Assembly: GCA_046080385.1 (NCBI GenBank)
Contig: JBJTTW010000130.1
Location: 1 to 52,405, forward strand
Reading direction: 5' to 3'
DNA from: a bacterium
GTDB taxonomy: Bacteria; Cyanobacteriota; Vampirovibrionia; LMEP-6097
DNA length: 52,405 nt
Part shown: positions 11,524 to 48,585 of the stretch, one piece after another
Numbering within the stretch: the first letter of the stretch is position 1
How the letters are laid out: each line of letters begins with the position of its first letter
Translations under genes and position numbers: made by a program
Notes under the pieces: model-generated
The model's input: only the letters and a program-made list of their open reading frames with translations
What the model was told of the DNA's origin: nothing
Database searches by the model: none

Positions 11524-12765
11524 TTGTTGATAGAGGATATTCTTGTGCGAGTTGCGTTTACGGGAGGAGGCACTGGGGGACATATTTATCCATGTCTTGC
11601 TGTTGCTGAGCTATTTGAAGATGAAAGTAATCAATCTGGAGCTGAGAAAAACGCTCTTTATTATATTGGTGGTGAAGGAAAGCTTGAGCAGGAACTGTGT
11701 CTAAGAAAAGACTATATTCAGTTTCTACCTATTAATGCTCCAAGACTGCCATCTCGAAATAATTCTTTTAAAGAAAATTTAGAATGGTTTGGTATTTTTT
11801 TTAAAGCTTATCAATGTTCCGTAAACTACCTGAAGAAAAATAAAATTGATGTAGTGATGGGGACGGGTGGTTACGTGGCAGCGCCAGTGTTTCTTGCCTG
11901 TGTGACAACGAAAACCAAGTTCTTAATTCATAATCTTGATAGTAATTTTGGTTTGGTAAATAAATTGTTTAAAATATTTGCGAGTCGCGTAAGCTTAGGC
12001 TTTCCGATAAATATAAATTTTAATGATAAATATCATTACACGGGTAATCCAGTCTCACAAGATTTTATAAATATTTACAGGGAGAGCAAAAACGACGAGG
12101 ACGACGAAAACGCAGAAATTGAAGTTTGGCAGCAGCCCCGTGATGAAAATCATTTGAGGGTGTTAGTAACAGGTGGCAGTCAGGGTTCTCAGTTCGTTAA
12201 TGATAGTATAGGTGCTTTACTGAAAGATTTTGAAGATTTCAATCAGAGATTAGCTCTTAAAGGCAAAAGAATATCTATTATTCATATTACTGGCTCTAAG
12301 CTTTTTGACGAACATGTGAGTAAATATTTAAATGGTGATCCGAATAAATATTCTAACTATAAGGTTTTAAGTTACACCCATGAAATGTCCAATATTTCTA
12401 AAACCGTTGACATAGCTATTTGTAGGGCTGGTGCTATGACTTGTGCTGAAATGGCAGTGTCACTTATAGTACCAATATTAATTCCTTTACCTTGGGCTGC
12501 TCATGATCATCAGACTAAAAATGCAGAGGCTTTGGTTAAGGCTGCTTGTGGTTTCATAATTCGCCAAGATGTCTTGTCTGATGAGGGCACGGCACAAGGT
12601 CTAGAAAATGGAGCTGTAGATCGGTCTCAACAAAGGGAGATTGCTGATTTAATTTTTGACCTAGCTAGGAATCCTGAGAAAATATCGGAAATGAAGAAAA
12701 AACTATATCTGTTTGCAAAACCTGAAAGTAGTAGAGAAATTTTTACCTTGTTGAGAAATCTTTAA
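11524..12765 (+). CDS. murG: Undecaprenyl-PP-MurNAc-pentapeptide GlcNAc transferase, carrying two repeat-derived insertions
   Basis: GGGTGGHIYP, GTGGYVAAP, TGNPV, GGSQG, CRAGAMT, DHQTKNA. Confidence 0.93.
   Translation: MLIEDILVRVAFTGGGTGGHIYPCLAVAELFEDESNQSGAEKNALYYIGGEGKLEQELCLRKDYIQFLPINAPRLPSRNNSFKENLEWFGIFFKAYQCSVNYLKKNKIDVVMGTGGYVAAPVFLACVTTKTKFLIHNLDSNFGLVNKLFKIFASRVSLGFPININFNDKYHYTGNPVSQDFINIYRESKNDEDDENAEIEVWQQPRDENHLRVLVTGGSQGSQFVNDSIGALLKDFEDFNQRLALKGKRISIIHITGSKLFDEHVSKYLNGDPNKYSNYKVLSYTHEMSNISKTVDIAICRAGAMTCAEMAVSLIVPILIPLPWAAHDHQTKNAEALVKAACGFIIRQDVLSDEGTAQGLENGAVDRSQQREIADLIFDLARNPEKISEMKKKLYLFAKPESSREIFTLLRNL
12097..12138 (+). repeat. In-frame repeat copy in murG (EDDENAEIEVWQQP)
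   Basis: gaggacgacgaaaacgcagaaattgaagtttggcagcagccc matches the intergenic core. Confidence 0.9.
12603..12628 (+). repeat. Degenerate in-frame repeat end in murG (ENGAVDRS)
   Basis: agaaaatggagctgtagatcggtctc matches the reverse complement of 18730-18755 at 21 of 26 positions. Confidence 0.55.
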
Positions 12766-12795
12766 GAACCACTTCTGCAATGGATTGCTAGTGGT

Positions 12796-13383
12796 TTATT
12801 GCAAGCTGTCTATTAAATTTACAATTTCTGCATAAACAGCAGGATACTCATCTTTAAAGCCTTTATAGAAAATAAAAACTTGTGGTACTGAAATTAGTTT
12901 AGATGCTGAATCAGTTACTGGGAGATACTCTTGTAAGCTGTGTACGTAATAAACATCACCGCGTTTATTAAAGTTTTCTTTCCAAGGAAAAGTGTTTTTA
13001 AATTTTAAAATCTTTAATTGTTCGTGAATCTTAGTTACAGCGGTGATTTGATTTTTATCAAGGCTGATTATTCTAGAAGAGAAGCTAGTAAATTTAGGAT
13101 TATTTTTTCCTGGATCATGAAGGACGGTGATGTTTACAAAAGGCTGATCATAAAAGCGAAATTCTAGAATTCTATCTTTATCGAATTCACGAAAGTCAAT
13201 CTTGAACAGCATATTCATTTGTCCATTTTTAAGTTCGATGGACTTATTTCTTTTGACAGAGATAAGCTCAGCTTGAACAGAAGTCTGTATAAAAACTGAA
13301 ATCAGAAGAAGATAGAGTAATCGACAAATCGACTGTTTACAGAAACGCAGCAATGGAATTTTTCGAGCAGTCTCACGAAACAT
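12796..13383 (-). CDS. Hypothetical exported protein
   Basis: 195-aa ORF with a signal-peptide-like segment LLYLLLISVFIQTSVQA. Confidence 0.6.
   Translation of the reverse strand: MFRETARKIPLLRFCKQSICRLLYLLLISVFIQTSVQAELISVKRNKSIELKNGQMNMLFKIDFREFDKDRILEFRFYDQPFVNITVLHDPGKNNPKFTSFSSRIISLDKNQITAVTKIHEQLKILKFKNTFPWKENFNKRGDVYYVHSLQEYLPVTDSASKLISVPQVFIFYKGFKDEYPAVYAEIVNLIDSLQ
13331..13374 (+). repeat. Degenerate repeat copy in the 5' end of ORF 12796-13383 (read antisense)
   Basis: gactgttt...aaacgcagcaatggaatttttcgagcagtctc. Confidence 0.5.
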
Positions 13384-13385
13384 TT

Positions 13386-14756
13386 TTAGCTCACTTTTTT
13401 TCCTGTCGGTAGACCTCTAATTTCTTGTCTTGGTCTTGCGATACCCAGCATTTGAGCTGGTATATCTTGGGTTATTACAGAACCTGCTGCTACAGAGGCT
13501 CCTTCATGTATGGTTATTGGAGCTACTAGGACGGAGTTCGCTCCAGTACTAGCTCCTTGGCAGATTACGGTGGTGGATTTCTCACCAGTGAATGAATTAT
13601 AGTTAGCTGTAATAGTACCCGCGCCTATATTTACGTTAGACTTAATTTGAGCATCACCAAGATAACTCAAGTGAGCTGCGGAAGAGGCTTCACCCATGGT
13701 ACTATTTTTCACTTCAACAAAACATCCTACGCGTGCTTTGTTGTAAACGTCACTGCCATCTCTAATGTGTGCAAAAGGACCGATATTACAGTGTTCACCA
13801 ATGGAGCTTCTGTTAATGTGGGACTGAATTACAGTGCTATGAGAACCTATTTCAGCTGGTCCGAATATTGAAGTATTAGGACCAATAGAGCAGTTCGAGC
13901 CTATAGTGACACGACGATGTATATAAGTGCCAGGGTATATAACGGTGTCTGGGCCAATATCTACTTCTGGGCTAATGACTGTACTGTTAGTATCTATAAT
14001 TGTTACGCCTGCATCCATAAGAGCTTCTAGTGCTTCTTGATTTTTTAATCTTGAAACTGCTGCTAGATCGGTACGGCTATTAATCCCTAAAGCTTCATTA
14101 GGATTCTGTAAAATAAAATTACCGATGCTAAGACCTTGACTGTAAGCCCAAGCCACTAAATCGGTTAAATAAAATTCCTCTTGGGCATTATTGCTTTTAA
14201 GTTTGCTTAAGCCTTCTTTGATAAATTGCCACTCGAAACAGTAGACCCCAGCATTAACTTCTTTGATCGTTTTTTCTGCTTCCGAGCAGTCTTTATCTTC
14301 TTTGATGCCAATTATCGTATTATTTCTTCTAACTATGCGTCCATAGCCATCGGCACAGTCCACTAGGCTGCTTAGTAGAGTTATTTGGTGCTCTCTCTGC
14401 TCATGATAGTTAAGCATGTCGTTTAGTGTCTCTGAGCGGATTAAAGGAGAATCACCATTCACTACTAAAACAGTCCCTTCAAAATCATCAAGCTCATCTT
14501 GAACGCACATAAGTGCGTGTCCTGTACCCATTTGTATAGTTTGATCTACAACTGTAACTGGATATGCATGTAAAAAATTCCTTACTTTTTCAGCTTGGTG
14601 ACCACAAACTACTATGATTTCATCTTGATCAACTTCTGCAAGCGAGTCCAAAACCCAAGCTAAGATTGGTTTGTCGAATATTCGGTGTAAGACTTTAGCA
14701 TTGTTGGATTTTAGTCTAGAGCCTTTTCCTGCTGCAAGTACGACAGATTTAATCAT
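13386..14756 (-). CDS. glmU: Bifunctional UDP-GlcNAc pyrophosphorylase/acetyltransferase
   Basis: LAAGKGSRLKS, GTGHA, GYGRIVR, NNAQEEFYLTD, hexapeptide repeats, HLSYLGDA. Confidence 0.95.
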   Translation of the reverse strand: MIKSVVLAAGKGSRLKSNNAKVLHRIFDKPILAWVLDSLAEVDQDEIIVVCGHQAEKVRNFLHAYPVTVVDQTIQMGTGHALMCVQDELDDFEGTVLVVNGDSPLIRSETLNDMLNYHEQREHQITLLSSLVDCADGYGRIVRRNNTIIGIKEDKDCSEAEKTIKEVNAGVYCFEWQFIKEGLSKLKSNNAQEEFYLTDLVAWAYSQGLSIGNFILQNPNEALGINSRTDLAAVSRLKNQEALEALMDAGVTIIDTNSTVISPEVDIGPDTVIYPGTYIHRRVTIGSNCSIGPNTSIFGPAEIGSHSTVIQSHINRSSIGEHCNIGPFAHIRDGSDVYNKARVGCFVEVKNSTMGEASSAAHLSYLGDAQIKSNVNIGAGTITANYNSFTGEKSTTVICQGASTGANSVLVAPITIHEGASVAAGSVITQDIPAQMLGIARPRQEIRGLPTGKKVS

Positions 14757-14792
14757 GGTTTTATAATAGCAAAAAACTATTTGATGACGAGT

Positions 14793-16731: not shown

Positions 16732-18601
16732 TTTATTCCAAACAGCTATAGATAAGGCTATTTCAGTATCTGATTTAGGTGAACTGAAAAGCTTTTCTGA
16801 CTATATAGATGTAGAGAGGTGCAAAAACCCTGATCACGGTGACATCGCTGTGAATATAGCTCTGAAGCTCTCTCGTGAAGCCAAGCTTGTACCATTGAAA
16901 ATTGCTCAAAATATAGTGAAACATTTAGATGTCCTTGCTATTGGCGATATTTCTATAGCTGGTCCAGGCTTTATTAATATTCGTTTGAATTGGGATTTTT
17001 TAGAATCTGCTCTAGTAGAGATTCATCAAGAGAAAGATAATTATGGTCGTCTATCTAAAGAGGCTCGGGCTGATATGGAGCCACATCGTTTTCTTGTGGA
17101 ATATGTTTCAGCGAATCCTACTGGTAATTTACATTTAGGTCATGGTAGGCAGGCGGTTCTCGGTAATTCCCTTGCAAGATTACTGGATTGGGCTGGTTAT
17201 GAGGTATCTAGTGAATTTTATATCAATGATGCTGGTGTGCAGATTGAAAAGCTTGCGCTCTCCGCTCAAGCTGCGATTCAAATTCAAGAAGCTCATATTA
17301 GTAAAGAAGCTTATCCAGAGGATGCTTATCCGTTAGACTCTATGTTAGACGTTTTAAAACCAGAGATTTATAGACCTAAGCTGGAAGCCTATTTGGATAC
17401 TGTTTCTCTTGCTAGTGATCAAGCAAAAGAGATTGCGGGGCAGCTAGCAAAAAGCCTTTTCCTTGATTTACAGAAGAAAGTTTTAGCTGATATAGAAGTT
17501 CATTTCGATACATGGTACTCGGAGAACGAGAATCTATATCAAGTTAAAATTAATGATAAAAATAAAATTGAGTTAATCTGTGAGACACTTAAAGCAGCAA
17601 AAGTAAAACGAGAAAATTCTGAGCAGTCCCATGAAGGCACTGTTGCCAAAAACGCAGATCCGCTACACGCCAATGAAGTCTCTGCTGTGTATGAAGAAGA
17701 CTCGGCTCTATGGTTTAGAGCGAAATCCTTTGGTGATGAGCGAGATAGAGTTCTTAGGAAATCTCAAGGTGTGTTCACTTATTTAGCTGGTGATATCGCG
17801 TATCATAAAGATAAATTTGACAGAGGTTTTGATAAATTAATTAACGTTTGGGGCAGTGACCATCATGGCCAAGAGCTTGGCATTCGTGGAGCGATTCAAG
17901 CCATTGGCTATAATCCAGATCAGCTAGAGTTAATTTTTATTCAATTAGTTTCTGTTAAGGAAGATGGCGTGGAGAAAAAAATGTCTAAGCGTAAAGGCAC
18001 TATCGTTAATGTTGATGATCTTTTAGCTGAAGTTGGTAAAGATGCTCTGAGATTCTTTCTCGTGGATAGTCAAGCCAATAATCGTATGGTTTTTGACTTA
18101 GCTCTAGCTCAGAAGCATGATAAAGATAATCCAGTTTATTACATACAGTACGCACATGCCCGCTCGGCCAGCATATTTCGTAATTTGGTAAGCCCTCGTA
18201 TTAATATAGTTGATAATACCGAAGAAGCTGCTATTTTTGAAGTAGATGAATTAGAACGCTTATTAAATGAAGACTTTAAAACATTCTCTGCGAATTTTAA
18301 AAAACTCTTTTCTGATGAATATCATAGTGAAGAGCAGTTAAAAACTATCAGAAGTTTAGTCTTAGAACTTATAGAGTTACCTAAGCTTGTTATAGACGCT
18401 GCTGATATTAGAGCACCTTATAAAATCTCAGTCTACTTAAAGAATTTAGCTAGCTTATTTCATCAGTTCTATAATGAAAACCGCATTATAGGCGAGAATG
18501 AAGAGGTTATGAAGGCTAGGCTATCTCTTGTCGCAGCTTCTAAGATAGTTATAAAAAATGCTCTTAGTATACTTGGGATATCTGCCCCAGAGAAAATGTA
18601 A
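16709..18601 (+). CDS. argS: Arginine--tRNA ligase with a repeat-derived insertion
   Basis: VEYVSANPTGNLHLGHGR, WGSDHHG, KMSKRKG, NPVYYIQYAHAR, C-terminal APEKM. Confidence 0.95.
   Translation: MLSSKIRNLFQTAIDKAISVSDLGELKSFSDYIDVERCKNPDHGDIAVNIALKLSREAKLVPLKIAQNIVKHLDVLAIGDISIAGPGFINIRLNWDFLESALVEIHQEKDNYGRLSKEARADMEPHRFLVEYVSANPTGNLHLGHGRQAVLGNSLARLLDWAGYEVSSEFYINDAGVQIEKLALSAQAAIQIQEAHISKEAYPEDAYPLDSMLDVLKPEIYRPKLEAYLDTVSLASDQAKEIAGQLAKSLFLDLQKKVLADIEVHFDTWYSENENLYQVKINDKNKIELICETLKAAKVKRENSEQSHEGTVAKNADPLHANEVSAVYEEDSALWFRAKSFGDERDRVLRKSQGVFTYLAGDIAYHKDKFDRGFDKLINVWGSDHHGQELGIRGAIQAIGYNPDQLELIFIQLVSVKEDGVEKKMSKRKGTIVNVDDLLAEVGKDALRFFLVDSQANNRMVFDLALAQKHDKDNPVYYIQYAHARSASIFRNLVSPRINIVDNTEEAAIFEVDELERLLNEDFKTFSANFKKLFSDEYHSEEQLKTIRSLVLELIELPKLVIDAADIRAPYKISVYLKNLASLFHQFYNENRIIGENEEVMKARLSLVAASKIVIKNALSILGISAPEKM
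17621..17671 (+). repeat. Mosaic in-frame repeat remnant in argS (EQSHEGTVAKNADPLHA)
   Basis: Contains GGCACTGTTGCCAA, AAAACGCAGA and CGCTACACGCC, all modules of the repeat family. Confidence 0.7.
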
Positions 18602-18604
18602 CAG

Positions 18605-18815
18605 GGGCGTGTAGCGAAACTCCAATTTCTGCGTTTTCGCCCGCCTCATGATCCTCATGCACTTCTAGTGCACTGCGGTCATTCGTCCTCCTCAGCCTTG
18701 AACTTGTTCGTTTGGCTACACGCCCAAAAGAGACTGCTGCACAACTCCATTTTCTGCGTTTTCGTCCGCCTCATGATCCTCATGCACTTCTAGTGTACTG
18801 TGGTCATTCGTCCTC
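18605..18815 (-). repeat. One complete 121-bp unit (18605-18725) plus a partial unit (18730-18815) of the palindromic repeat
   Basis: GGGCGTGTAGC/GCTACACGCCC terminal inverted repeats; internal GTGCACTAGAAGTGCAT hairpin; the second unit has a GAGACTGCTGCA end. Confidence 0.92.
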
Positions 18816-19185
18816 ATTGTATATAATATCTGTCATTATTTAGGCTTACTGTTTTTTGATAAGTTTTAAATTCTGACAACTCAAAGCATTCATTCATACC
18901 GCTTTTCAGTAGGTCAAAAATTTTAAAGCCATCGATTAGATCTTTCGCGAATAAAACTAACTGTCTATCACTGATTCTCTGTGACTGTGGCATATGTTCG
19001 CTGATAATACCCCTAATTCTAGAGATGTGTGATTCTACAGTTCTTACAGAGAGGAAAAGATTTTCGGCTATTTCTGTATTCGTCTGTCCCTGTGCTAAAA
19101 ATTCCAGAACTGCGATCTGCTTTTCAGTAAGCCTCTTTCCTTTAAAGGTAATGCGTGGAAGATTTTCTGTATCGTACTTGAACAT
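18814..19185 (-). CDS. LuxR-type HTH transcriptional regulator
   Basis: LTEKQIAVLEFLAQGQTNTEIAENLFLSVRTVESHISRI. Confidence 0.85.
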   Translation of the reverse strand: MFKYDTENLPRITFKGKRLTEKQIAVLEFLAQGQTNTEIAENLFLSVRTVESHISRIRGIISEHMPQSQRISDRQLVLFAKDLIDGFKIFDLLKSGMNECFELSEFKTYQKTVSLNNDRYYIQ

Positions 19186-20753: not shown

Positions 20754-21497
20754 TTATAATGGAGATTTTTTAATCAGTGAATAACTGCGTGGGTAAGCCT
20801 TTTTCGTCTTTTGATTTTTTTTGAAAACAAGTATCTCTCTCTCGTTATTAAAATAAGTAATTCTATCTATTAGCTCAACTCCTAAATGCTTCATCGCAGA
20901 AGCAGCTTCCTCAAACTCTTTTCCACACTGCTTATAAGCAAGAAAGTAGCCTTGGAGCTTAATTAAGGGAGTGCAGATTTCTAGGATTATCGGTAAGCTT
21001 GCTACTGAACGGCATAGAGCGATGTCATAGGACTCTCTTTTGTCATCTGTGATTTCTTCGGCTCTAGCAGCAAGAGTATTTAAATTTTTTAAAGCTAAGT
21101 CTTCTTTTACTATTTCAATAAATTTGAGCTTTTTAGCTGTAGAATCTAAAGCCGTAAAATGAAGATTTAATTGTTCTCGATCTGCGACTAAAGCTAAAGG
21201 TAAGGTAGGAAAGCCCCCGCCAGTGCCGATGTCAATAATTTCAAGAGGACACTGTTGCCGAACTCCAATTTCTGCGTTTTCGTCGTCCTCATGATTTTTG
21301 TCTAGGTAGCTGTCTGAGACTTTTAACTGAGCTGCAATGAAGGGGTAACTAATGAGTGAGTCTTCGAAGTGTTTACGATAGACATCTTCTTCACTGCGAA
21401 TAGCAGAAATGTTCGTGTGTGAAATAAAGTCACTATAAAGCTTATAAAGCTTCTCAAAATCATCTGAGTATTTATTTATAAGTTCTAAATTATTCAA
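20754..21497 (-). CDS. rsmG: 16S rRNA m7G527 methyltransferase with an in-frame repeat insertion
   Basis: NISAIR...KHFEDS, DIGTGGGFP, DSTAKKLKF, RAEE, RESYD. Confidence 0.9.
   Translation of the reverse strand: MNNLELINKYSDDFEKLYKLYSDFISHTNISAIRSEEDVYRKHFEDSLISYPFIAAQLKVSDSYLDKNHEDDENAEIGVRQQCPLEIIDIGTGGGFPTLPLALVADREQLNLHFTALDSTAKKLKFIEIVKEDLALKNLNTLAARAEEITDDKRESYDIALCRSVASLPIILEICTPLIKLQGYFLAYKQCGKEFEEAASAMKHLGVELIDRITYFNNEREILVFKKNQKTKKAYPRSYSLIKKSPL
21247..21294 (-). repeat. In-frame repeat copy in rsmG (HEDDENAEIGVRQQCP)
   Basis: ggacactgttgccgaactccaatttctgcgttttcgtcgtcctcatga. Confidence 0.92.
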
Positions 21498-29532: not shown

Positions 29533-30696
29533 TTAAATCTGTATTGGTACATAGTATAAATACTTTGCGGTTATAGGATCTGAAATTCTTAAATTGAAAT
29601 TATCTAAATTAGAAAATTTGCCGAGTGAATAACAGAGTTTTAGGGTACACTTTGTATCAGTGTTAATCTTAGACAGGTCTTTGGAATTAAAATTCAACAA
29701 AAATGGATTTGGTAAGAATTCTTGAGAGTTAGTTCTATTCACTAAAATGAAATCTTGTAAATCGAAGTCTTTCTCAGAAGCATTTTCTATTTCTAATTCT
29801 AAAAATATTGAATCCCCAAAATTATAAGAATAAAATTTCTTTGACTGAGTAATCTTAATTTCAAGATTAATATCACTGGCAAGTACTGGTTCAACCACTG
29901 AAGCAGTCGATCCTCCAAAAGGGGCGTGTAGCGAAACTCTAATTTCTGCGTTTTCGCCCGCCTCATAATCCTCATGTTTTACTGGTTCAATAAATTTCAC
30001 CTTAAGCTGTGAATCACTAGGCTCCGAATAAAATGGCTGTGGAGCAGCTACAAAAGAGTTTACTATCCCGGAAACAGCTCCGAGACCAGCTCCAGCTACT
30101 ACTGAAAAACCATTAGTGAGCATAACTAATGGTAAGCCACCATATTTTAAAGTTTTTAAAGTACCACTTAAGCCGCTAAGAACTACATTGGAACTGCTTC
30201 TGAGGAAAGCATCTTCACTGACTTTATCTTCTAAGCTTTTATCTTGCTCTTTAGTGTCTATTCTAAAAAGCCCTGAAGCTGCCGTGCTAGAACCATTTTC
30301 AGAAATGAGTTCCGTAATTCTAAAAAGAAAATTTTTATTATCAAGAGAGTCACCTTCTACTGAAGCTTTTAGGTAGCTGTTTGCTGGTATTGTAAAAATC
30401 TTTCCTACTTCTGGCGTAATTTTGAAAATTAAACTATCACCATTTAAAATTAAACGTGGATCAAAGCTCTCAATACTAATTAAATGTAGGGTTTCATCTT
30501 CGAGCTTGAACTCCTCTTCAACGGAGGCATAGCCTTTTAATACAGAAGATCCTTGCAGATAAGCTTCGTTCTCAGTCAATTTTGAGGCAGAATCTAAGGC
30601 TCCAATGGGCTGAGCATTTATATTAGTGAAAGATAAGCCCTGTAATAATAGAAGCAAAGAGAGGAATCTTAAATTATTTGTGAAATTGATTCGCAA
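29533..30696 (-). CDS. Hypothetical exported protein with an in-frame repeat insertion
   Basis: Signal peptide, glycine-zipper-like GAGLGAVSG; contains HEDYEAGENAEIRVSLHAP. Confidence 0.65.
   Translation of the reverse strand: MRINFTNNLRFLSLLLLLQGLSFTNINAQPIGALDSASKLTENEAYLQGSSVLKGYASVEEEFKLEDETLHLISIESFDPRLILNGDSLIFKITPEVGKIFTIPANSYLKASVEGDSLDNKNFLFRITELISENGSSTAASGLFRIDTKEQDKSLEDKVSEDAFLRSSSNVVLSGLSGTLKTLKYGGLPLVMLTNGFSVVAGAGLGAVSGIVNSFVAAPQPFYSEPSDSQLKVKFIEPVKHEDYEAGENAEIRVSLHAPFGGSTASVVEPVLASDINLEIKITQSKKFYSYNFGDSIFLELEIENASEKDFDLQDFILVNRTNSQEFLPNPFLLNFNSKDLSKINTDTKCTLKLCYSLGKFSNLDNFNLRISDPITAKYLYYVPIQI
29921..29976 (-). repeat. In-frame repeat copy (HEDYEAGENAEIRVSLHAP)
   Basis: Nearly identical to 18604-18659. 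Confidence 0.92.
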
Positions 30697-36765: not shown

Positions 36766-36791
36766 TAGCTCGGGGAGCGGATCCTTAATCT
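36766..36791 (+). repeat. Solo end of the GGATCC-type element, supplying a stop codon
   Basis: tagctcggggagcggatccttaatct is identical to 334-359. Confidence 0.85.
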
Positions 36792-37580: not shown

Positions 37581-38861
37581 ATGGTGTTCTTTGATTTAAA
37601 TAATGATTTGCAAGCTTCAGATCAAGAGGTTTACAGATTTATTCAAAAAGAATTAGAAAGACAGTCTCAAAATATTGAGCTTATCGCTAGTGAGAATTTT
37701 ACAAGCCAAGCTGTTATACAGGCTGCAGCTTCTTGCTTTACCAATAAATATGCTGAAGGCTATCCAGGTAAAAGGTATTATAACGGTTGTGAAAACTGTG
37801 ATGATGTGGAAAGCCTTGCGATTGAAAGAGCTAAAAAACTCTTCTCTGCTAAGTATGCTAATGTACAAGCTCATTCTGGAGCGAATGCTAATACTGCTGC
37901 TTTCATGGCAATGCTAAAACCAGGGGATAAGATTCTTGGCATGAGTCTTAAAGAAGGTGGGCATCTTACTCATGGTACTTCTGTAAATTTCTCTGGCAAA
38001 TTTTATCAGGCTTTTGAGTACGGTGTTGATGATAATGGTTTCCTAGACTACGATGCCGTTGAAAGAATCGCTAAGCAAGAAAAACCACAGCTGATTATCG
38101 CTGGAGCCTCTGCCTATCCTCGAATCATTGATTTTAAAAGATTTCGTGAAATAGCTGATAGTGTAGGCGCTTATCTTCTTGTAGATATGGCTCACATAGC
38201 AGGTTTGGTGGCTGCTGGTTTACATCCTAATCCTTTACCATACGCAGATGTAGTAACTTCTACTACTCATAAAACCTTGGGCGGTCCAAGAGGCGGCATA
38301 ATTTTATCCAACAATGAAGACCTTTTTAAAAAAATAGATTCTGCTATTTTCCCCGGCTCCCAAGGTGGTCCATTAATGCATATAGTTGCAGCTAAAGCCG
38401 TTTGCTTCGGAGAAGCTCTGACTCAAGAGTTTAAGGAGTATCAAGCTCAAGTAATAAAAAATGCAAAAGTTTTAGCAGATACTTTAGTTCAAGAAGGGAT
38501 AGAAATAGTGAGTGGTGGCAGTGATAATCACTTAATTCTTATTAGTCTAGTTAAGTTTGGTATTACTGGTAAAGATTTAGCTAATCTTTTAGATCAGTAT
38601 AAAATTACAGTTAATAAAAATGGCATACCCAAAGACCCTCAGAGCCCTTTCGTGACCAGTGGTATTAGAGTTGGCACACCAGCTATGACTAGGAGAGGAT
38701 TTAAGGAACAAGACTTTAAAGATTTAGGTGTCCTTATTGCTAAGTTTATTAAAACAATGGCAACGAATAGTCTTGCCTTGGATGCAGAAATCGAGAGTTT
38801 TGTTAAAGCAGAGGTTAGCAGGCTTATAGAAGGCTTGAATTTTTACAAGATCGGCGTGTAG
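37581..38861 (+). CDS. glyA: Serine hydroxymethyltransferase
   Basis: [42 protein letters not shown]. Confidence 0.96.
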
Positions 38862-38894
38862 CGAAACTCCAAACCCAATTTCTGCGTTTTCGTC
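38853..38894 (-). repeat. Repeat copy supplying the last codons and TAG stop of glyA
   Basis: GGC GTG TAG cgaaactcc...aatttctgcgttttcgtc. Confidence 0.85.
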
Positions 38895-39015
38895 ATTGAA
38901 AATAATAAAAAAATCAACATTTTAGGCTAATTTATGTTAATTAGCTCCCCCCCAAATCTAGGGATTTAGGCTATTATGTGATAGTTGGCCGCTTCAACTT
39001 TAAAAGGAAATACGA

Positions 39016-40351: not shown

Positions 40352-41788
40352 TTAAAGTGACTTAGAGAAAAGTTTATGAGCATTTTTTTGTTTCAGGTAA
40401 TGGTCAAACATGCTTGCGATATTACGCACAAATAAACGTCCGAGTTCGGTTACTGAAATGGAAAATCTTCCATTATTAAGGTCTTTATTATGGGAGTGTA
40501 GCGAAACTCCAATTTCTGCGTTGTTAGTATTAATTAGATTAAGCTCTATTAAACCATCTTGGACGAAGGATTCTAGTAGGGAGTATTCTTCCTTATAATC
40601 ATCATAATTAAGTTCAGTATAAAAATGACACATTATTTCTTTGATGATCTGCTTGCGCTCAGTGTCCTTAGCGTCAGAGATGAAAAATTTCTCTGCGGCA
40701 AAAGGATCTTCCTCGTTATAATATTCGCTCAATTTTTTTTTATTCTGCTTGTAAGTCCCTTGTATAGATGATATTGCAGTTAGTCCAATCCCAAATAAAT
40801 CACAGCCATCATGAGTGGTGTAACCCTGAAAATTACGATAAAGCTTTTTATTCTTGTGAGCCTTACATAATTCATCATCGGGTCTTGCAAAGTGGTCTAG
40901 CCCTATCGGCTGGTAACCTTCGGCTGTAAAGGATTTTACTGCGAGCTCGAATATATCCAGCTTGGTTTTCTGGTTTGGTAAAGTATCTTCGTTAATATAT
41001 TTTTTCTGAAAAGGGAAGAACTCGGGTATGTGTGCGTAATTGAAAAGTGCAATTCTTTCGGGTGATAATTTAATGACTTGTTCAACAGTCTTCTTAAAAG
41101 TCGTAAGGTCCTGATGGGGTAAGCCATAGATTAAGTCGAAATTAACGCTGTTAAAGTCGGCTTCACGAGAGATCTTTAGTATATTTTCCACTGATTCATA
41201 TGTCTGAATGCGATTTATAGCTTCTTGGGTTTTTTCATTGAAGTCCTGTATCCCCATGCTAAGTCGATTGAAGCCTAATCTAGATAGAGTTTTCAAATGT
41301 TCTTGGCTAGTGACCCTTGGGTCTATCTCAATAGAATATTCATGATTAAAGAAAGCCTCATCAACCTTATTCAAAAGATTAAAGTGTTTGCGAAGGTGTT
41401 CGTAAATTTCCTCTATTTCATCAGGATGGAGAAAAGTCGGAGTACCTCCTCCCCAAGCCATTTGTATGACTTTTCGCTCTGGTGAGATCCTTTCACCTAT
41501 ATACTCAATCTCTTCTTTGATGCGTTTTATGTAAGATTTGCTGATTTCGTGCTTTTTGCTGATTATGACATTGCAAGCACAGTAATAGCATTGGCTTTCA
41601 CAGAAAGGCAAGTGAAGATATAAAGAGTAATTATTACCTTCAAGGTTTGATGCTTCAATTGCAGTTTCAAAGGCTGTTTTGGAGTAAGGCATTCTCCATT
41701 CTGGAGCTGTGGGATAGCTGGTATAGCGAGGTACTGCTCCACCATATTTCTTAAGTAGCTCTTGTAAATTAGTATCTGCTTTTTGCAA
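40352..41788 (-). CDS. hemN: Oxygen-independent coproporphyrinogen III oxidase
   Basis: PRYTSYPTA, HLPFCESQCYYCAC, GGGTPT, GLDHFA, RNFQGY. Confidence 0.93.
   Translation of the reverse strand: MQKADTNLQELLKKYGGAVPRYTSYPTAPEWRMPYSKTAFETAIEASNLEGNNYSLYLHLPFCESQCYYCACNVIISKKHEISKSYIKRIKEEIEYIGERISPERKVIQMAWGGGTPTFLHPDEIEEIYEHLRKHFNLLNKVDEAFFNHEYSIEIDPRVTSQEHLKTLSRLGFNRLSMGIQDFNEKTQEAINRIQTYESVENILKISREADFNSVNFDLIYGLPHQDLTTFKKTVEQVIKLSPERIALFNYAHIPEFFPFQKKYINEDTLPNQKTKLDIFELAVKSFTAEGYQPIGLDHFARPDDELCKAHKNKKLYRNFQGYTTHDGCDLFGIGLTAISSIQGTYKQNKKKLSEYYNEEDPFAAEKFFISDAKDTERKQIIKEIMCHFYTELNYDDYKEEYSLLESFVQDGLIELNLINTNNAEIGVSLHSHNKDLNNGRFSISVTELGRLFVRNIASMFDHYLKQKNAHKLFSKSL
40492..40522 (-). repeat. 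In-frame repeat copy in hemN (NAEIGVSLHS)
   Basis: gggagtgtagcgaaactccaatttctgcgtt. Confidence 0.88.
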
Positions 41789-42141: not shown

Positions 42142-42387
42142 TTAATTTCTGCATTTATGATTCTGTTTTAGCTTTAATTTCTAGAATTTAGAAAATCTCC
42201 TTAATTACTCTGATATTTATAGGTTATTATTTAATGAGGCTTTAGTATAGAGCCACAGCTTTTCTTGATTGCTATTTTCTGGATTTGTTGTGCTTTGTGT
42301 GAATGCCTGTTTTCAAAGATAGATAAAAAGGGAGTTTCGCTAAACGCCCAGGATTAAAAGATAATTAAGAGAGAGAAGGAATAATAT

Positions 42388-44720: not shown

Positions 44721-44838
<118 letters not shown>

Positions 44839-44843
44839 TTAAT

Positions 44844-44872
44844 ATCTTAGCAAGCGGCTCAGGGTTCTGCAA
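44844..44872 (-). promoter_or_regulatory. Sigma70-type promoter for the 5S rRNA
   Basis: TTGCAG-17 nt-TAAGAT ending about 6 nt before the 5S 5' end. Confidence 0.65.
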
Positions 44873-44933
44873 GAGCTTTGAATGAGTTTAATTTTTTTCT
44901 TATTATTTTGCGGGAAATGAATTGAAAACGTAG

Positions 44934-45689
44934 GTGTTAGAATGTTTGTTTATGGCAGATACTCTTGAAAAAGATAATATTGTTATTGTTGAGGATAAAG
45001 CTGATTTAGGGTCACTTGGCTATATGGAGCTTATGGACTCGATGGGCGGTGATTTATCTATCGTGAATTCGGCAAGAGTCTCTTACAATAAGTATTCTGT
45101 CGAGTTTGAGGAAAAAGATAAAAAGCTAATAAAATTTTTAGCGAAGCACGAGCATTGGACACCTTTTGAGCAGAATTCAATTACTTTTAGAGTTAAGTGT
45201 CCTATTTATATTGCTCGTCAATGGATGAAGCATAGATGCTGGGTTTTCAATGAAATTAGTGCTAGATATACCAAATTTGATAATACTATCTATAGACCAG
45301 ATGAATTTAGAGAGCAAGCTGAGACTAATAAGCAGGCTAGTGTCAAAGCTAGTGAAGCTCTAAATCAGGCTGTTGCGGGTGAAATATATGATAATGCTGC
45401 TAAAATGGCTATAGAAGCATATAACAAGTTGATAGAACTAGGGGTTTGTAGGGAGCAGGCTCGTGGAGTGCTTCCCGTGGGCTCGCATACGGAGTTTATT
45501 ACCACTGTTAATTTAAGGAATTTTATGCACTGGTATAACCTTAGAGCTCCGAAAGAAGCTCAGTGGGAGATACAGCAGTATGCTAAGGCTGGAATACAGC
45601 TAGTGAAAAGAGTTTTTCCAGTAGCTGTCGAGTGCTTTGAAGAGTTAGAGAAAGAGTCTCTGTTAGAGGGTTCTGAGAAAGGTAATTAA
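44934..45689 (+). CDS. thyX: FAD-dependent thymidylate synthase
   Basis: ARVSY, HWTPFE, ARQWMKHR...NEISARY, REQARGVLP, AQWEI. Confidence 0.93.
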   Translation: MLECLFMADTLEKDNIVIVEDKADLGSLGYMELMDSMGGDLSIVNSARVSYNKYSVEFEEKDKKLIKFLAKHEHWTPFEQNSITFRVKCPIYIARQWMKHRCWVFNEISARYTKFDNTIYRPDEFREQAETNKQASVKASEALNQAVAGEIYDNAAKMAIEAYNKLIELGVCREQARGVLPVGSHTEFITTVNLRNFMHWYNLRAPKEAQWEIQQYAKAGIQLVKRVFPVAVECFEELEKESLLEGSEKGN

Positions 45690-45691
45690 AT

Positions 45692-46723
45692 ATGATAATT
45701 GTTGTTGGAAAAATCATTCTGCTACTTGCAGCTATTTTATTTGTCTGCTTGTGGTTCACTAATGCAGTAGAAAATATTGGGGTACGCCTGAAACTAGGTG
45801 AGCAAGTTGTTGGGAGTTTACTTGCGGCCATTGGTACTGCTTTGCCTGAGACTCTTTTACCTATTATCGCTATATTTTTAGCGGGCTCGGTTCATGGTGA
45901 TCCGAAGACTGATATAGCTATTGGATCTATTGTTGGAGCACCTTTTCTTCTATCTACCTTGGCTATGGCTCTTTTGGGCTTGGCTATATTGGTAAGTTAC
46001 AAAAAAAGACAAGACTTAAATTTAAGGGCGACTCATGGCCACATAAGTAAAGATTTGACATATTTTATAATCGCTCTGTCTATAGCTATGTTAGCCACTC
46101 TTTTCCCTGATGCTATATCTAAAGTAGTTTTCACTATAGTGCTCTTAGGGATTTATGTAACGTATTTTGTGACTACTCTGAGAGAGGGTTCTAATCATAA
46201 TCACAGTGAAGAAGATGCGGAGGGAGTTGATGCGCTCTATATATCTAGTGTTGCAGTAGCTGGTTTCCGTTTACCCGCAAATTTATTCTGGATGATTGCT
46301 CAGGTCTTGCTTTCATTGCTTGGAATTATTTATTTCGCTCATAGGTTTATTATTTCTATCGAAGAAGCTTCTGTGATGATGAATGTAAGTCCACTCGTTT
46401 TAAGTTTAATTATCGCGCCTATTGCTACTGAGCTTCCAGAGAAGGTGAATAGCTGGTTCTGGGCAAGTTCTGGTAAAGATGGCCTTGCAATGGGTAATAT
46501 CACTGGGGCTATGGTGTTTCAGTCCGCTATTCCTTGCGCAGTAGGTGTAAGTTTGACTCCATGGAATTTGGATTCGCATACTATGTTTTGTTTTGTTTTA
46601 GCTTTACTTTCAGCCTTTATTCTTTTGCTCTCCCTGAAAGTATTTAAGCGTGTTCACGCTGCGACACTTACTTTTCTGGGCTTTTTGTATTTGCTATATC
46701 TAATTGCTATAATCTTATTCTGA
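45692..46723 (+). CDS. Sodium:calcium antiporter family protein
   Basis: Alpha repeats AIGTALPE and PIATELPE; GNITGAMVFQ. Confidence 0.88.
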   Translation: MIIVVGKIILLLAAILFVCLWFTNAVENIGVRLKLGEQVVGSLLAAIGTALPETLLPIIAIFLAGSVHGDPKTDIAIGSIVGAPFLLSTLAMALLGLAILVSYKKRQDLNLRATHGHISKDLTYFIIALSIAMLATLFPDAISKVVFTIVLLGIYVTYFVTTLREGSNHNHSEEDAEGVDALYISSVAVAGFRLPANLFWMIAQVLLSLLGIIYFAHRFIISIEEASVMMNVSPLVLSLIIAPIATELPEKVNSWFWASSGKDGLAMGNITGAMVFQSAIPCAVGVSLTPWNLDSHTMFCFVLALLSAFILLLSLKVFKRVHAATLTFLGFLYLLYLIAIILF

Positions 46724-46770
46724 TTTCAGAGTTTCCATATTTTAGGATTCTTTAATCGCTTTAAACTATT

Positions 46771-47556
46771 ATGACTCAACATATAACAGGTGAAATATTC
46801 GGACAGCAGGTCAATCTTGACACTCTTTACTATGCTTGGGGTACTATGGCTTTGGTTTTAGCGGTAGCAGCTTATCTAGGATCTTCTTTACAGAAGGAAG
46901 TTTCAAAATATGGCATGAAAGAGCATCTTGCAGAGTCAGTTGTATCTTTTTTTAGAATTTTAACTAGTGGTCAGATTGGTAAGCGAGGCGATCAGTTTGT
47001 ACCTTTGATTGGAAGCATTTTTATTTTTATTCTGGTAAATTATTATGCTGGTTTACTACCATGGCAGTTAGGTAAGTTTTTTCACTGGTGGCCTACTTTG
47101 CCAAGTCATGGTGAAGAACATGCCCATATTTGGCATGGAGCTAGTACTTGTGCTGATATTAATGTTCCAGCGGCGATTTCCATTTTGGTCGTTTTGATTT
47201 ATTTTACTGCCGGAGCTATGATCGGTGGTTGGAAGTATATTCAAATGTTCTTGCCGATTAACTTTTCTAAAGAAAAAGGTTTAAGTTTAAATTTGATGTG
47301 CCTGATTGAGCTTATGGATCTTTTAATTCGTCCGCTTACTCTTACCCTGCGACTTTTTGCAAATACTGTTGCTGGAGAGACTTTGCTTGCTACTTTTATT
47401 GGTTTGGTGGCATTAGTTATTCCTGTAGTTGTTCTTGGTTTTGAAATGTTTGTTGGATTATTACAGGCTTTTCTATTTGCTATTCTTACCTGTGTTTATA
47501 TCGGTGGCGCAGTGCAGCATGCTGAGCATCTTGTGCATGATGCCGAACATCACTAA
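46771..47556 (+). CDS. atpB: F0F1 ATP synthase subunit a
   Basis: FIFILVNYYAGLLP, ADIN, RPLTLTLRLFAN, LQAFLFAILT. Confidence 0.92.
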   Translation: MTQHITGEIFGQQVNLDTLYYAWGTMALVLAVAAYLGSSLQKEVSKYGMKEHLAESVVSFFRILTSGQIGKRGDQFVPLIGSIFIFILVNYYAGLLPWQLGKFFHWWPTLPSHGEEHAHIWHGASTCADINVPAAISILVVLIYFTAGAMIGGWKYIQMFLPINFSKEKGLSLNLMCLIELMDLLIRPLTLTLRLFANTVAGETLLATFIGLVALVIPVVVLGFEMFVGLLQAFLFAILTCVYIGGAVQHAEHLVHDAEHH

Positions 47557-47559
47557 TTT

Positions 47560-48585
47560 GTGTTTATAGAGCATTTTATTCATATATTATTTGAGATACT
47601 GCCTGTATTCCTTATTGCAGTTATTTGCTCCTCCTTACTTGAAGTTTATTTACCTGATGGGTATTTTGAAAAAATAGGGAAAGAGGACGACGAAAACGCA
47701 GAAATTGGAGTTTCGTTACATGCCCATCAATTGAGTCTTTTGGGGATGATATTAGTTTCAGCCTTTCTCGGTGCATTAATTCCTATTTGCACCTGTGGAA
47801 TGATTCCACTTGCTTTAGGATTGTATCGTAAGCAGCTTGACTGGAAAATAATTTTAGCTTTCCTTCTTGCTGGAAATGCTTGTAGTATCCCAGCTTTAAT
47901 CCTTAATTATGGAATTTTTGGCTTGGAGATTAGCATCTATCGTTTATTAATGGCGATAGTTTTTGCTGTTCTGGTTACATACGTTTTAATTTTCTTTGGA
48001 GAGGCTAAAATTGCAGATTTTATTGCGTTGAAATTAGCTCCAAGTGGATCGTCTGTGTCAGAACACTGTTGTGCAGCTGATCATCATCATGGGAACGTAG
48101 AAATTGGAGATGAGGATCATGAGGACGACGAAAATGCAGAAATTGGAGTTCTGGAGCAGTGCCATGAGCATAAACTTGGGATGATGGAAGTTCTCGTACA
48201 TATAAGAGAGGATCTTATCGCTGCGATAAAACAGTTTTTACCGTGGATACTTTTGTCTGTGGCTTTTGCAAGCTTGCTTCATTTTAATTATGAATCGCTG
48301 ACTGCTTTTCAAACTGCGATAACTAATAAATATTTATCGCCATGGATTTTTTCACTGATCGCATTTCCTTTTTATTTTTGTGCAGGAGCAGATATTCCAA
48401 TGAGTCAAGAATTTTTCAATATGGGAGTGCCTGTAGGAGCTGTGCTTGCTTTTATGACAGCTAGTCCTTCGGTGAATCTGACTACTGTTTTTGTATATAA
48501 GCAGGCATTTGGTTTCAAGGCTGCTATTTATTTGACGGTTATTTCGGTTGTGGTTATTGCTTTGCTGTCGGTTTTTTGTTTTTAG
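47560..48585 (+). CDS. ArsP/DUF318-type permease with repeat-derived insertions
   Basis: GALIPICTCGMIP, PFYFCAGADIP, GAVLAFMTASP. Confidence 0.85.
   Translation: MFIEHFIHILFEILPVFLIAVICSSLLEVYLPDGYFEKIGKEDDENAEIGVSLHAHQLSLLGMILVSAFLGALIPICTCGMIPLALGLYRKQLDWKIILAFLLAGNACSIPALILNYGIFGLEISIYRLLMAIVFAVLVTYVLIFFGEAKIADFIALKLAPSGSSVSEHCCAADHHHGNVEIGDEDHEDDENAEIGVLEQCHEHKLGMMEVLVHIREDLIAAIKQFLPWILLSVAFASLLHFNYESLTAFQTAITNKYLSPWIFSLIAFPFYFCAGADIPMSQEFFNMGVPVGAVLAFMTASPSVNLTTVFVYKQAFGFKAAIYLTVISVVVIALLSVFCF
47683..47725 (+). repeat. In-frame repeat copy (EDDENAEIGVSLHA)
   Basis: gaggacgacgaaaacgcagaaattggagtttcgttacatgccc. Confidence 0.92.
48061..48163 (+). repeat. In-frame tandem repeat copy (…NVEIGDEDHEDDENAEIGVLEQC)
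   Basis: aacgtagaaattggag followed by atgaggatcatgaggacgacgaaaatgcagaaattggagtt...gcagtgcc. Confidence 0.88.

Follow-up and report, generated by a model that had tools for sequence, protein, structure and literature searches.

A dense palindromic MITE read in frame as a predicted extra loop in housekeeping proteins of a Caenarcaniphilales genome

The window analysed here, a contig of 52,405 nucleotides, belongs to a 2.27-Mb MAG of the Caenarcaniphilales (Vampirovibrionia/Melainabacteria; named G000) that is 92% complete; the organism is a freshwater, non-photosynthetic relative of the cyanobacteria. An nhmmer profile derived from the genome detected 14 pieces of a palindromic element in the window, and its 30-nt core occurs there nine times at ≤3 mismatches, compared with none in 100 shuffles. 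Among the genes that carry the element, NCBIfam identifies murG, argS, rsmG, hemN and an SO_0444-type permease, while ORF 29533-30696 matched no NCBIfam family. An earlier note on this DNA had reported eight in-frame insertions in six genes, all in a single orientation and frame, with the host ORFs intact. We located all eight by nhmmer or scripted host-frame translation, in the sense strand of their hosts and in the same element frame, and the ORFs are open across every copy; both permease copies are present, the second of them slightly away from the position given earlier (48061). The in-gene copies are as follows, with comparison, where available, to G001, a second genome of the genus (30 contigs).

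12095..12139, + strand: murG, in-frame right-end piece, model positions 77-121, residues 191-206, DEDDENAEIEVWQQPR (nhmmer, host-frame translation); the window keeps the right end here, G001 a left-terminus remnant.
12585..12640 (approximate), + strand: murG, second, degenerate copy, residues about 354-373, EGTAQGLENGAVDRSQQ (translation, G001 comparison); it has no nhmmer match in the window, and G001 holds a recognisable element core, GAAAATGCAGAAAATGGAATTCCGCG..., at this site.
17615..17682, + strand: argS, composite degenerate remnant, residues 303-325 (relatives' alignment, AlphaFold), in which an A-type terminus lies at 17636 and one of B type ends near 17672.
21248..21296, - strand: rsmG, in-frame right-end piece, model positions 73-121, residues 68-84, NHEDDENAEIGVRQQCP (nhmmer, translation), directly before the IDIGTGGGFP motif.
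29922..29989, - strand: ORF 29533-30696, in-frame right half, model positions 54-121, residues 236-259, HEDYEAGENAEIRVSLHAP (nhmmer, translation); relative to G001, the window has 42 extra nt here.
40492..40522, - strand: hemN, in-frame right-end piece, model positions 91-121, residues 423-433, NAEIGVSLHS (nhmmer, translation); a 33-nt stretch is missing from G001.
47682..47725, + strand: permease, first in-frame right-end piece, model positions 78-121, residues 41-56 (nhmmer, translation); G001 has unrelated sequence of similar length.
48104..48163, + strand: permease, second in-frame right half, model positions 62-121, residues 182-202 (nhmmer, translation), standing in place of a His-rich loop of G001.

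Further copies lie between genes or at gene ends. The earlier inventory, right for the genic set, had overlooked the last three of these.

163..209, + strand: right-end piece containing the TGA that ends the 5'-open ORF of the contig start (nhmmer).
214..464, + strand: one copy split by a nested second repeat family, model positions 1-63 at 214-276 and 57-116 at 405-464 (nhmmer).
265..412, + strand: second, unrelated palindromic repeat, about 140 nt long, that interrupts the preceding copy at its centre (genome search).
478..596, + strand: near-full intergenic copy, model positions 3-121 (nhmmer), with a third type of terminus, GAGACTGCTGTATAAC....
18605..18725, - strand: full-length 121-bp intergenic copy with B-type termini (nhmmer), beginning 3 nt past the argS stop, between convergent genes.
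18730..18815, - strand: partial copy, model positions 36-121, abutting the preceding copy and the stop of ORF 18814-19185 (nhmmer).
38853..38895, - strand: remnant, model positions 84-120, antisense to glyA (nhmmer, translation); it overlaps the last glyA codons, and its B-type terminus supplies the TAG stop.
42326..42368 (approximate), - strand: short intergenic terminus remnant, GGGCGTTTAGCGAAACTCCC (inverted repeat).
50955..50998 (approximate), + strand: left-end piece, model positions 4-47, just upstream of ORF 50995-51513 (nhmmer, direct repeat).

Genome-wide, nhmmer found 406 copies in the 2.27 Mb. Among near-full copies, 77/83 are exactly 121 bp long, and the full unit is bounded by terminal inverted repeats of 16 nt and duplicates 5 bp of its target site: the flanking 5 nt on the two sides are identical in 25 of the 83 and agree at ≥4/5 positions in 46, and the next register outward, used as a control, gave 2/83 (Fisher 2e-15). 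This architecture is that of a classical MITE. The earlier note had the repeat core right and had missed the full unit, its ends, its duplication and the candidate partner insertion sequence (IS) described below. Since 121 + 5 = 126 bp, or 42 codons, each insertion keeps the host frame downstream. The two termini of a copy are always of the same type, with 28 B-B pairs, 18 A-A pairs and none mixed. Terminus diversity is 0.32 compared with about 0.1 in the interior, and 77 copies show 50 distinct left arms; variable termini around a conserved interior invert what is usual for MITEs. In another genus a related core, about 80% conserved, carries still other termini. A single transposase recognising one terminus does not account for this variability.

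Slightly more than half of the copies (212/406, 52%) lie inside long ORFs, defined as stop-to-stop ORFs with 20-codon margins, and 199 of these in ORFs of ≥200 aa. True internal position was confirmed through this ORF length, through family matches for only 8 of 10 ORFs tested, and in the window genes. As a control, the second palindromic repeat family has only 7 of its 77 genome hits within long ORFs. The earlier note had anticipated a non-random frame distribution, and indeed 200 of the 212 in-ORF hits (94%), spread over 134 ORFs, are in one strand and phase (+0), as are 30 of 31 in 445 kb of G001. Part of this bias is trivial, since over its full length the element has stops in four of six frames and only two are stop-free; the earlier note, which called the other two sense frames of the core stop-free, had missed this. 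The decisive contrasts are the 54:1 split between the two open frames among full-length in-ORF copies, where one half would be expected in +0 (p = 3e-15), and the short right-end pieces (start at or beyond model position 81), which are open in all six frames yet in +0 in 34/34 cases (p = 3e-27). Between co-oriented genes, copies face either way about equally often (36 sense, 31 antisense; p = 0.63), so the frame bias would arise from selection after insertion. Partial copies retain the right rather than the left end in a ratio of 124:15 inside ORFs, compared with 75:36 outside (p = 3e-5), in agreement with the proposed retention of the acidic part of the peptide in genes.

The +0 frame reads GTVAERTSSRLRRTNDRSVLGVHEDHEDDENAEIGVRQQS, a hydrophilic peptide (GRAVY -1.32, net charge -3.0), basic in the left half and strongly acidic in the right; the other open frame yields a more hydrophobic one containing Cys, His and Phe (GRAVY -0.44, net charge +2.2, one Cys). 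Kinship with RPE-1, a Rickettsia palindromic element (RPE), had been suggested earlier; the 40-aa element peptide gave no match at E ≤ 1 in Pfam or in NCBIfam, which presumably includes the RPE1 model TIGR01045, and that suggestion was not borne out. From the translations, an element-derived peptide is predicted in at least 134 ORFs, including argS, murG, rsmG, hemN, polA, carB, mutL, radA, lptB and argJ. Of ten host ORFs that carry full copies, eight match housekeeping families; the profile match is in two stretches in seven ORFs, ArgJ, PolA, CarB, MutL and LptB among them, and in one stretch in those matching MurT-like, YlqF and RadA. Placement in surface loops, which the earlier note expected, agrees with the AlphaFold models of ArgS and LptB, where the inserts are modelled as low-confidence loops, in both cases between two beta strands. 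In ArgS (pLDDT 90.1) the sole segment below 50 is 304-320, inside the insert, and in LptB (pLDDT 82) the only such segment apart from the first five residues is 74-109, again inside the insert.

Orthologues from relatives bear out that these peptides were inserted, being absent at the ArgS, RsmG and LptB sites of repeat-free relatives. LptB occurs as empty alleles (221-244 aa), a full allele with a 42-aa insert (G000) and deleted alleles (DENAEIGVRLQC, 233-236 aa). A private RLQC variant is common to the deleted and full alleles, which shows that the right-end piece is what deletion left of a full insertion. In a 22-genome family alignment the RsmG insert is absent from G001 and from 16 of 18 other-genus rows, the remaining two having short, unrelated extra residues, and it is decayed in G002 and G005. 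At the argS site, the same-genus MAGs L009, L010 and L014 have a clean right half of the element, and the insert is absent from L011, L013 and all more distant ArgS. Deletions happen between short direct repeats.

We favour, with good confidence, an account in which the MITE is probably moved by an IS in trans, makes 42-codon insertions that are filtered by selection, and decays to acidic in-frame loops. The 126 bp added by every insertion preserve the host frame, and the element can be read through in two of six readings, the hydrophilic +0 frame and the more hydrophobic one. Insertion would occur without orientation bias, after which purifying selection would purge genic copies in the five other phases and orientations; +0 copies in tolerant spots, such as surface loops and beta-hairpin turns, would survive as extra disordered loops. 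As seen at individual sites, genic copies would then generally shrink through in-frame internal deletions, the basic left half being preferentially lost and the acidic ...EDDENAEIGV... piece staying.

The putative partner is an IS of about 1.15 kb in about 20 copies, encoding DUF772 (50 bits) and DDE_Tnp_1 (47 bits), both above the Pfam gathering scores. All its copies in G000 break contigs, leaving about 20 left and 22 right ends at contig ends and no full copy in that assembly; a whole copy lies in G001 (L115:1185-2334), where the transposase is in two overlapping ORFs that could reflect a frameshift or decay. Its termini, GGCACTGTTGC... and ...GGCAACAGTCCC, are identical to the A-type MITE terminus over the first 11-12 nt, and it too makes 5-bp duplications: of 20 5-mers on left flanks, 8 are found again among the right flanks, compared with 0-1 in shifted controls and none for 6-mers. 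DUF772 followed by DDE_Tnp_1, short terminal inverted repeats and a small target duplication resemble IS5/IS1182 elements. The best NCBIfam matches are IS1182, IS5 and IS982 transposases, although all score below the curated cut-offs (55 bits vs 270; 50 vs 140), and the split transposase of the G001 copy also differs. MITE and IS resemble each other in the terminal 11-12 nt only; their interiors match no better than shuffled sequences, of which 444 and 449 of 500 score as high, so the MITE is not a simple deletion derivative of the IS. The shared terminal nucleotides and the 5-bp duplications make this IS5/IS1182-like element the likely mobiliser.

Other machinery, such as a Y1/RAYT-type enzyme, a reverse-transcriptase route, or gene conversion or template switching between palindromes, is distinctly unlikely. 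A reverse-transcriptase route would yield 5'-truncated copies, and copies with the 3' (right) end and without the 5' part are in strong excess; the arms co-vary, with ≤2 mismatches between them in 67/77 copies compared with about 14/77 when partners are shuffled; no IS was found with B-type termini, and further terminus types likewise lack an IS counterpart; and several sites hold different element fragments in different species. However, 5-bp duplications flank full copies and the IS with a matching terminus makes the same duplication, G000, at its stated completeness, has no Y1_Tnp or RVT_1 match, and the truncated pieces have another source in deletion, between short direct repeats and, in LptB, from a full insertion.

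It seems to us very unlikely that the host retains or spreads the peptide, or just its acidic part, as a module of benefit to its proteins (for instance for solubility or metal binding), with the repeat as a by-product. The preference for the acidic right half in ORFs, the piece at the position of the G001 His-rich loop in a Cu/Zn-type permease, and the conservation of the core in another genus would all fit a module. On the other hand, the element is equally abundant outside genes (194/406 hits outside long ORFs), has the hallmarks of a transposon, and forms inserts that are modelled as low-confidence loops, are polymorphic for presence among near-identical orthologues and decay quickly. Variation at the three codon positions is 0.085, 0.112 and 0.115, with no third-position excess and thus no signature of peptide constraint, so that selection on the peptide is read from the frame and orientation counts only.

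Removal of the copies from mRNA, or ribosomal skipping, would leave the proteins unchanged, and the very stable predicted hairpin (-55 kcal/mol for the sense strand, -44 for the other) would suit it; this is highly implausible, because phase and stop-freeness would then not matter, yet 200/212 copies are in the hydrophilic open frame, decayed remnants unable to form the hairpin are still in frame, and only 5S rRNA and tRNAs match Rfam in the window. Misjoining of repeats into genes during assembly or binning has a negligible probability: G000 is in 291 contigs, 22/406 hits lie ≤60 nt from a contig end and Logan unitigs end within the repeat core at 12099-12126, 18605-18764 and 21250-21277, but the host ORFs are open throughout, the independent L009, L010 and L014 (other records) have part of the element at this very position in argS, the less fragmented G001 obeys the same frame rule, another study's contig (X3 record 21, 17132-17719) bridges the argS remnant, and both murG flanks run into the core in the source run.

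The MITE, probably moved by an IS and filtered by selection, has parallels in several known systems. RPE-1 to RPE-10 were reportedly described by Ogata et al. in 2000 and 2002. In passages of two sources (PMC10969869, PMC1779305), RPEs are palindromes of 100-150 bp that occupy intergenic as well as protein-coding DNA; in unrelated housekeeping genes each adds a conserved peptide in frame, presumed to sit where the fold tolerates it, and the families show bursts confined to particular lineages and remnants in decay, among them the PheT insert; a review passage gives 44 copies in R. conorii, about half in ORFs. Our element agrees with these passages in its palindromy and length, its intergenic and in-frame genic copies, its conserved peptide, its housekeeping hosts, its presumed placing where folds are tolerant, its lineage-specific spread and its decayed remnants. 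It differs in the lack of peptide matches noted above, in its host (freshwater MAGs of Cyanobacteriota, class Vampirovibrionia), in its clear inverted repeats, target duplication and candidate IS partner, and in its load on genes, which at 200 in-frame pieces spread over 134 ORFs is much higher than the R. conorii figure of that passage. Bacterial MITEs (Nezha/ISNpu3 in cyanobacteria, Correia, RUP, BOX, ERIC) are, in the relevant passages of PMC3184786 and PMC10969869, small, non-autonomous, multi-copy elements with terminal inverted repeats, target duplications, stable hairpins, empty and filled sites, IS-shared termini and occasional in-frame ORF fusions. The element shares these traits, whereas those families are mainly intergenic and 52% of its own hits fall within long ORFs, 94% of them in a single frame; its termini are more variable than its interior, which is unrelated to the IS. 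REP/REPIN repeats are likewise abundant GC-rich palindromes in an AT-rich genome, often between convergent genes and with co-varying arms, but the element has a target duplication, a length of 121 bp, a coding-compatible frame and massive genic occupancy, and no Y1_Tnp gene was found in G000.

Judged by its sequence, the element is a new and very dense case of RPE-like behaviour, without sequence relation to the RPEs. The earlier view of a dense, mobile palindromic repeat that adds new peptide to housekeeping proteins thus extends to the whole genome, where a mobile element of 121 bases is kept as a predicted extra loop in well over a hundred proteins, essential enzymes included.

The element was modelled by iterating nhmmer on G000, the MAG (291 contigs, 2.27 Mb, 35.6% GC) of which the window makes up one entire contig, C130. 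This gave 406 matches and a 122-nt consensus, positions 1-121 of which make up the element. Since the profile misses extreme deletion derivatives, some of them near terminus-to-terminus joins leaving 23-37-nt mini-palindromes (e.g. C57:5507 and C97:16983, on other contigs of G000), 406 is a lower bound. Of 83 near-full copies, 77 measure exactly 121 bp, and the 16-nt terminal inverted repeats are perfect in the consensus. There are several classes of terminus, among them A (GGSACTGTTGCCGAAC) and B (GGGCGTGTAGCGAAAC), and both ends of a copy always belong to the same class (28 copies B-B, 18 A-A, none mixed). The arms of a single copy differ by at most 2 mismatches in 67/77, against about 14/77 for shuffled partners. 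The flanking 5-mers are identical in 25 of the 83 near-full copies and match at four or more of five positions in 46; in the control register, the next 5 nt outward, flanks match in 2/83. The inverted 16-nt termini and the matching 5-nt flanks identify the element as a MITE whose insertion duplicates 5 bp of the target site and so adds 126 bp, or 42 codons, each time. It carries no transposase gene, its sole long open frame being 40 aa without a family match, and by every sequence criterion tested it would answer to the definition of a MITE. Left and right termini 200-4000 nt apart, considered as the bounds of longer autonomous elements, were merely adjacent copies.

Over the full length, stops interrupt four of the six frames. 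Of the other two, one is +0, the host-sense strand and phase that reads the element as a hydrophilic peptide with an acidic right half, open in 68 of 77 copies; the second runs in reverse and is open in 65. From model position 81 to the right end, no frame contains a stop. The earlier note had described eight in-frame copies in six window genes. The window has 9 matches to the 30-nt core named there at up to 3 mismatches (0 in 100 shuffles), and all eight in-gene copies were found, on the host sense strand and in a single element frame, in the following genes:

murG: two copies
argS: one copy
rsmG: one copy
ORF 29533-30696: one copy
hemN: one copy
permease: two copies

NCBIfam models confirmed murG, argS, rsmG, hemN and the permease (SO_0444-type efflux permease), but no family model matched ORF 29533-30696.

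The same rule holds genome-wide. We counted a match as lying in an ORF if the stop-to-stop ORF reached at least 100 aa and left at least 20 open codons on each side of the copy. This applied to 212 of the 406 matches (host ORF at least 200 aa in 199/212), and 200 of the 212, in 134 distinct ORFs, share the +0 strand and phase, a clearly non-random distribution. For full-length in-ORF copies, +0 was found in 54/55 where two open frames predict 1/2 (p = 3e-15), and for in-ORF pieces starting at model position 81 or later in 34/34 where six open frames predict 1/6 (p = 3e-27). In G001, a second genome of the genus, independently assembled into 30 contigs, 30 of the 31 in-ORF matches in the 445 kb examined are also +0. 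We discarded as evidence that +0 is open in 47/47 in-ORF full copies vs 21/30 outside, since the comparison is circular: lying in an ORF presupposes an open frame. Between co-oriented genes, 36 copies point with the genes and 31 against them, which indicates no orientation preference at insertion, and we infer that the genic frame bias arises afterwards, through selection. The +0 peptide has a net charge of -3.0 (left half +2.8, right half -6.1) and a GRAVY of -1.32; that of the other open frame has a net charge of +2.2, a GRAVY of -0.44 and one Cys. Among partial copies, the acidic right half is retained in 124 and the left in 15 within ORFs, as against 75 and 36 elsewhere (p = 3e-5).

Repeat-free relatives lack the inserts, as the comparison of ArgS and RsmG orthologues shows. 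At the ArgS site, three same-genus MAGs (L009, L010, L014) carry HEAGENAEIGVPLHA, and the window has a scrambled composite; the insert is absent from L011 (96% identical) and L013, and more distant ArgS proteins are 28 residues shorter there. In RsmG, the window has NHEDDENAEIGVRQQCP ahead of the IDIGTGGGFP motif; this is decayed in two comparison genomes (G002, G005) and absent in G001. An alignment of 22 family genomes lacks it in 16 of 18 other-genus rows, the short extra residues of the remaining two (G015, G041) being unrelated to the element. Compared with G001, the window has 33 nt more at the hemN site, 42 nt more in ORF 29533 and 26 nt more at the glyA end. At the murG site the right end of the element survives in the window and the left terminus in G001, which implies that a full copy, once present there, has since decayed in a different way in each lineage. 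Outside the window, LptB (contig C71) has the full 42-aa insert in G000, only DENAEIGVRLQC at the same site in eight close protein clusters (233-236 aa), and an empty site in dozens of others (221-244 aa). The full and short alleles have a private RLQC in common where the consensus is RQQS, so the short allele arose when 90 nt were deleted in frame from the full insertion. At other sites, too, stretches of the element have been lost between short direct repeats within it. Empty and filled orthologous sites are thus available for LptB, RsmG and C66:17541, by comparison with G001 and metagenome proteins.

Assembly chimeras, which the earlier note had named as a possible source of the copies, do not account for them, for independent MAGs and the better-assembled G001 repeat the sites and the frame rule. 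In another study, a contig runs through the argS remnant, and in the probable source run both murG flanks continue into the core; unitigs break within the repeat, as expected at several hundred copies. ArgS loci 93-94% identical to that of the window were found in MAGs whose titles read Vampirovibrionia, Caenarcaniphilales, Melainabacteria or Cyanobacteria, and in one case Proteobacteria, which places the genome, a freshwater one, in the non-photosynthetic class that is sister to Cyanobacteria. The organism is present in roughly 10 freshwater studies. The exception, L012 (RFQS01000020.1, same genus, ArgS 94% identical, public title 'Proteobacteria bacterium'), looks mislabelled, given the Vampirovibrionia or Caenarcaniphilales titles of the other records. 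When a 138-nt copy was searched against 41 genomes, it matched 7/7 of the genus, G000 included, and one genome outside the genus (G018, about 80% identity), with no match in 17 other same-family genomes or in 16 more distant ones.

Of ten ORFs scanned that carry full copies, eight match housekeeping families, as follows:

ArgJ: two profile stretches
DNA polymerase I (PolA): two profile stretches
CarB: two profile stretches
MutL: two profile stretches
LptB: two profile stretches
YlqF: one profile stretch
MurT-like ligase: one profile stretch
RadA: one profile stretch

The earlier note expected the inserts in surface loops. The AlphaFold model of ArgS (38-sequence alignment, pLDDT 90.1) has a single segment below 50, residues 304-320, between strands 298-300 and 323-325. 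In that of LptB (43-sequence alignment, pLDDT 82.0) the insert lies between strands 64-71 and 112-115, and the segments below 50 are residues 74-109 and the first five. In both models, then, the insert forms an unstructured loop at the turn of a beta hairpin. The two models are consistent with the expectation, but low pLDDT is no proof of a surface loop, since low confidence is expected wherever the alignment has no homologues. The product of murG (window 11524-12765) scores 197 bits against TIGR01133, below the cut-off of 250, which may be partly due to its two inserts; element inserts may more generally depress profile scores and annotation in such genomes. Pieces of the element also end host genes: a TAG in a B-type terminus (38853-38861) ends glyA, and a TGA in ...CATGAGGAC (163-165) stops the ORF at the contig start.

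A candidate mobiliser is an IS5/IS1182-like IS of about 1.15 kb, a whole copy of which lies in G001:

L115:1185-2334: IS with DUF772 and DDE_Tnp_1, two overlapping ORFs

Both domains exceed their Pfam gathering cut-offs (PF01609, 47 bits, cut-off 23; PF05598, 50.3 bits, cut-off 23.1), and the best NCBIfam scores lie below theirs (IS1182, 55 and 66 bits, cut-off 270; IS5_4, 50 bits, cut-off 140). DDE_Tnp_1 genes are present in 5/7 genomes of the genus. In G000 the left end of the IS (GGCACTGTTGCTCAATC...) is found at about 20 contig ends and the right (...GATTGGCAACAGTCCC) at about 22, and the IS is thus multi-copy. Its outermost 11-12 nt equal the A-type MITE terminus, the match being confined to this type. 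Its left flanking 5-mer has an identical right 5-mer in 8/20 cases (0-1 in shifted controls, 0 for 6-mers), which indicates that the IS likewise makes 5-bp duplications. From the shared termini and duplication length, the IS would be the mobiliser of the MITE for the A type only. We considered whether the MITE is an internal-deletion derivative of the IS and rejected this, as the interiors resemble each other no more than shuffles do. Nor was an IS with B-type termini found, all 41 extra B-type termini examined being MITE remnants; with the interiors unlike and no B-type IS, the proposed partnership has good support only where the termini are of the A type. Around the other DDE_Tnp_1 genes of G000 (on C72, C177, C141 and C31), 2.5 kb were searched for MITE-like termini; none had 3/16 mismatches or fewer, and the one match, on C177, had 4. 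A Tn3-type transposase, considered because of the 5-bp duplication, was rejected, PF01526 being found in 0/7 genomes of the genus. A REPIN/RAYT system was likewise rejected (no PF01797, Y1, match in G000, which is 92% complete, and a 5-bp duplication present), as was a reverse transcriptase route (no match in G000). A different repeat of about 140 nt at C198:1-144 recurs at 97-100% identity on at least 12 other contigs of G000, mostly at contig ends, and is probably the end of another multi-copy IS.

Variation is concentrated in the termini (diversity 0.32 vs about 0.1 in the interior), with 50 distinct left arms in 77 copies and without a codon-position pattern. In G018 the core is shared and the termini differ again; one of six copies examined there lies in an ORF, in frame +0. 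Possible sources of variable termini with matched arms are subfamily descent, arm-to-arm correction in the hairpin, or several transposases.

Further repeats and features were seen in the window:

265-412, also 36766-36791: second palindromic repeat, about 140 nt, AAGGATCCGCT...AGCGGATCCTT, predicted hairpin -61 kcal/mol
2415-3329: about 15 tandem 51-nt (17-codon) units in the 350-aa ORF 2542-3594 (minus strand), an internally repetitive protein
44721-44837, minus strand: 5S rRNA gene with protein-coding ORFs as neighbours and no adjacent 23S rRNA on the 52-kb contig

The second palindromic repeat is unrelated to the first element and sits in the middle of a copy of it at 265-412; only 7 of its 77 genome matches lie in long ORFs. 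An Rfam scan of the window returned the 5S rRNA and two tRNAs only, the element falling under no RNA family.

Rickettsia palindromic elements (RPE) are described as 100-150-bp palindromes found inside and between genes, in frame and with a conserved peptide (PMC10969869, PMC1779305). In-frame protein-coding palindromes have so far passed for a Rickettsia peculiarity, and Ogata 2002 (cited in PMC10969869) calls them 'unique' in its title. Our element is likewise a 100-150-bp palindromic repeat that lies in frame in unrelated genes and encodes a conserved peptide, but its hosts are outside Rickettsiales, the nearest genomes being Vampirovibrionia/Caenarcaniphilales/Melainabacteria. The kinship with RPE suggested in the earlier note found no support at the peptide level: the element peptide matches no family at E <= 1 in Pfam or in NCBIfam, which should include the RPE1 domain TIGR01045, and at E <= 0.001 peptide-level profiles gave no RPE-family match in any of the eight host proteins. 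With no profile match and another phylum, RPE family membership is unsupported. Judged by titles and abstracts, none of the papers found on Caenarcaniphilales, Melainabacteria, RPE, MITEs and in-frame insertion describes such an element. It is a new representative of a known class (in-frame coding MITEs or palindromes); its phylum is new for that class, and its density in genes is unusually high. The case is independent of the Rickettsia one, and its genic density is apparently about ten times as great, a figure that RPE counts per Rickettsia genome may change.

The mechanics of the element are legible from sequence alone: inverted termini, a 5-bp duplication, the footprint of 42 codons, a candidate for the transposase and, in one gene, alleles ranging from full to deleted. 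For practical purposes, the inserts are liable to mislead gene annotation and orthology assignment in MAGs of Vampirovibrionia and to distort profile scores there, and they break assemblies. The frequency with which essential enzymes tolerate a 42-residue loop can now be tested, as can the adaptation of selfish elements to compact genomes through translatability and the seeding of new protein features by inserts. A tentative and rather speculative reading is that this MITE lineage has specialised for genes, its 42-codon footprint and stop-free, disordered hydrophilic peptide making coding sequence, 87% of the genome, its habitat. If so, the coding-compatible interior, conserved across genera whereas the termini co-vary, would be what selection among element lineages maintains, and the element would be the chief source of new loops in about 7% of the proteome, essential enzymes included.
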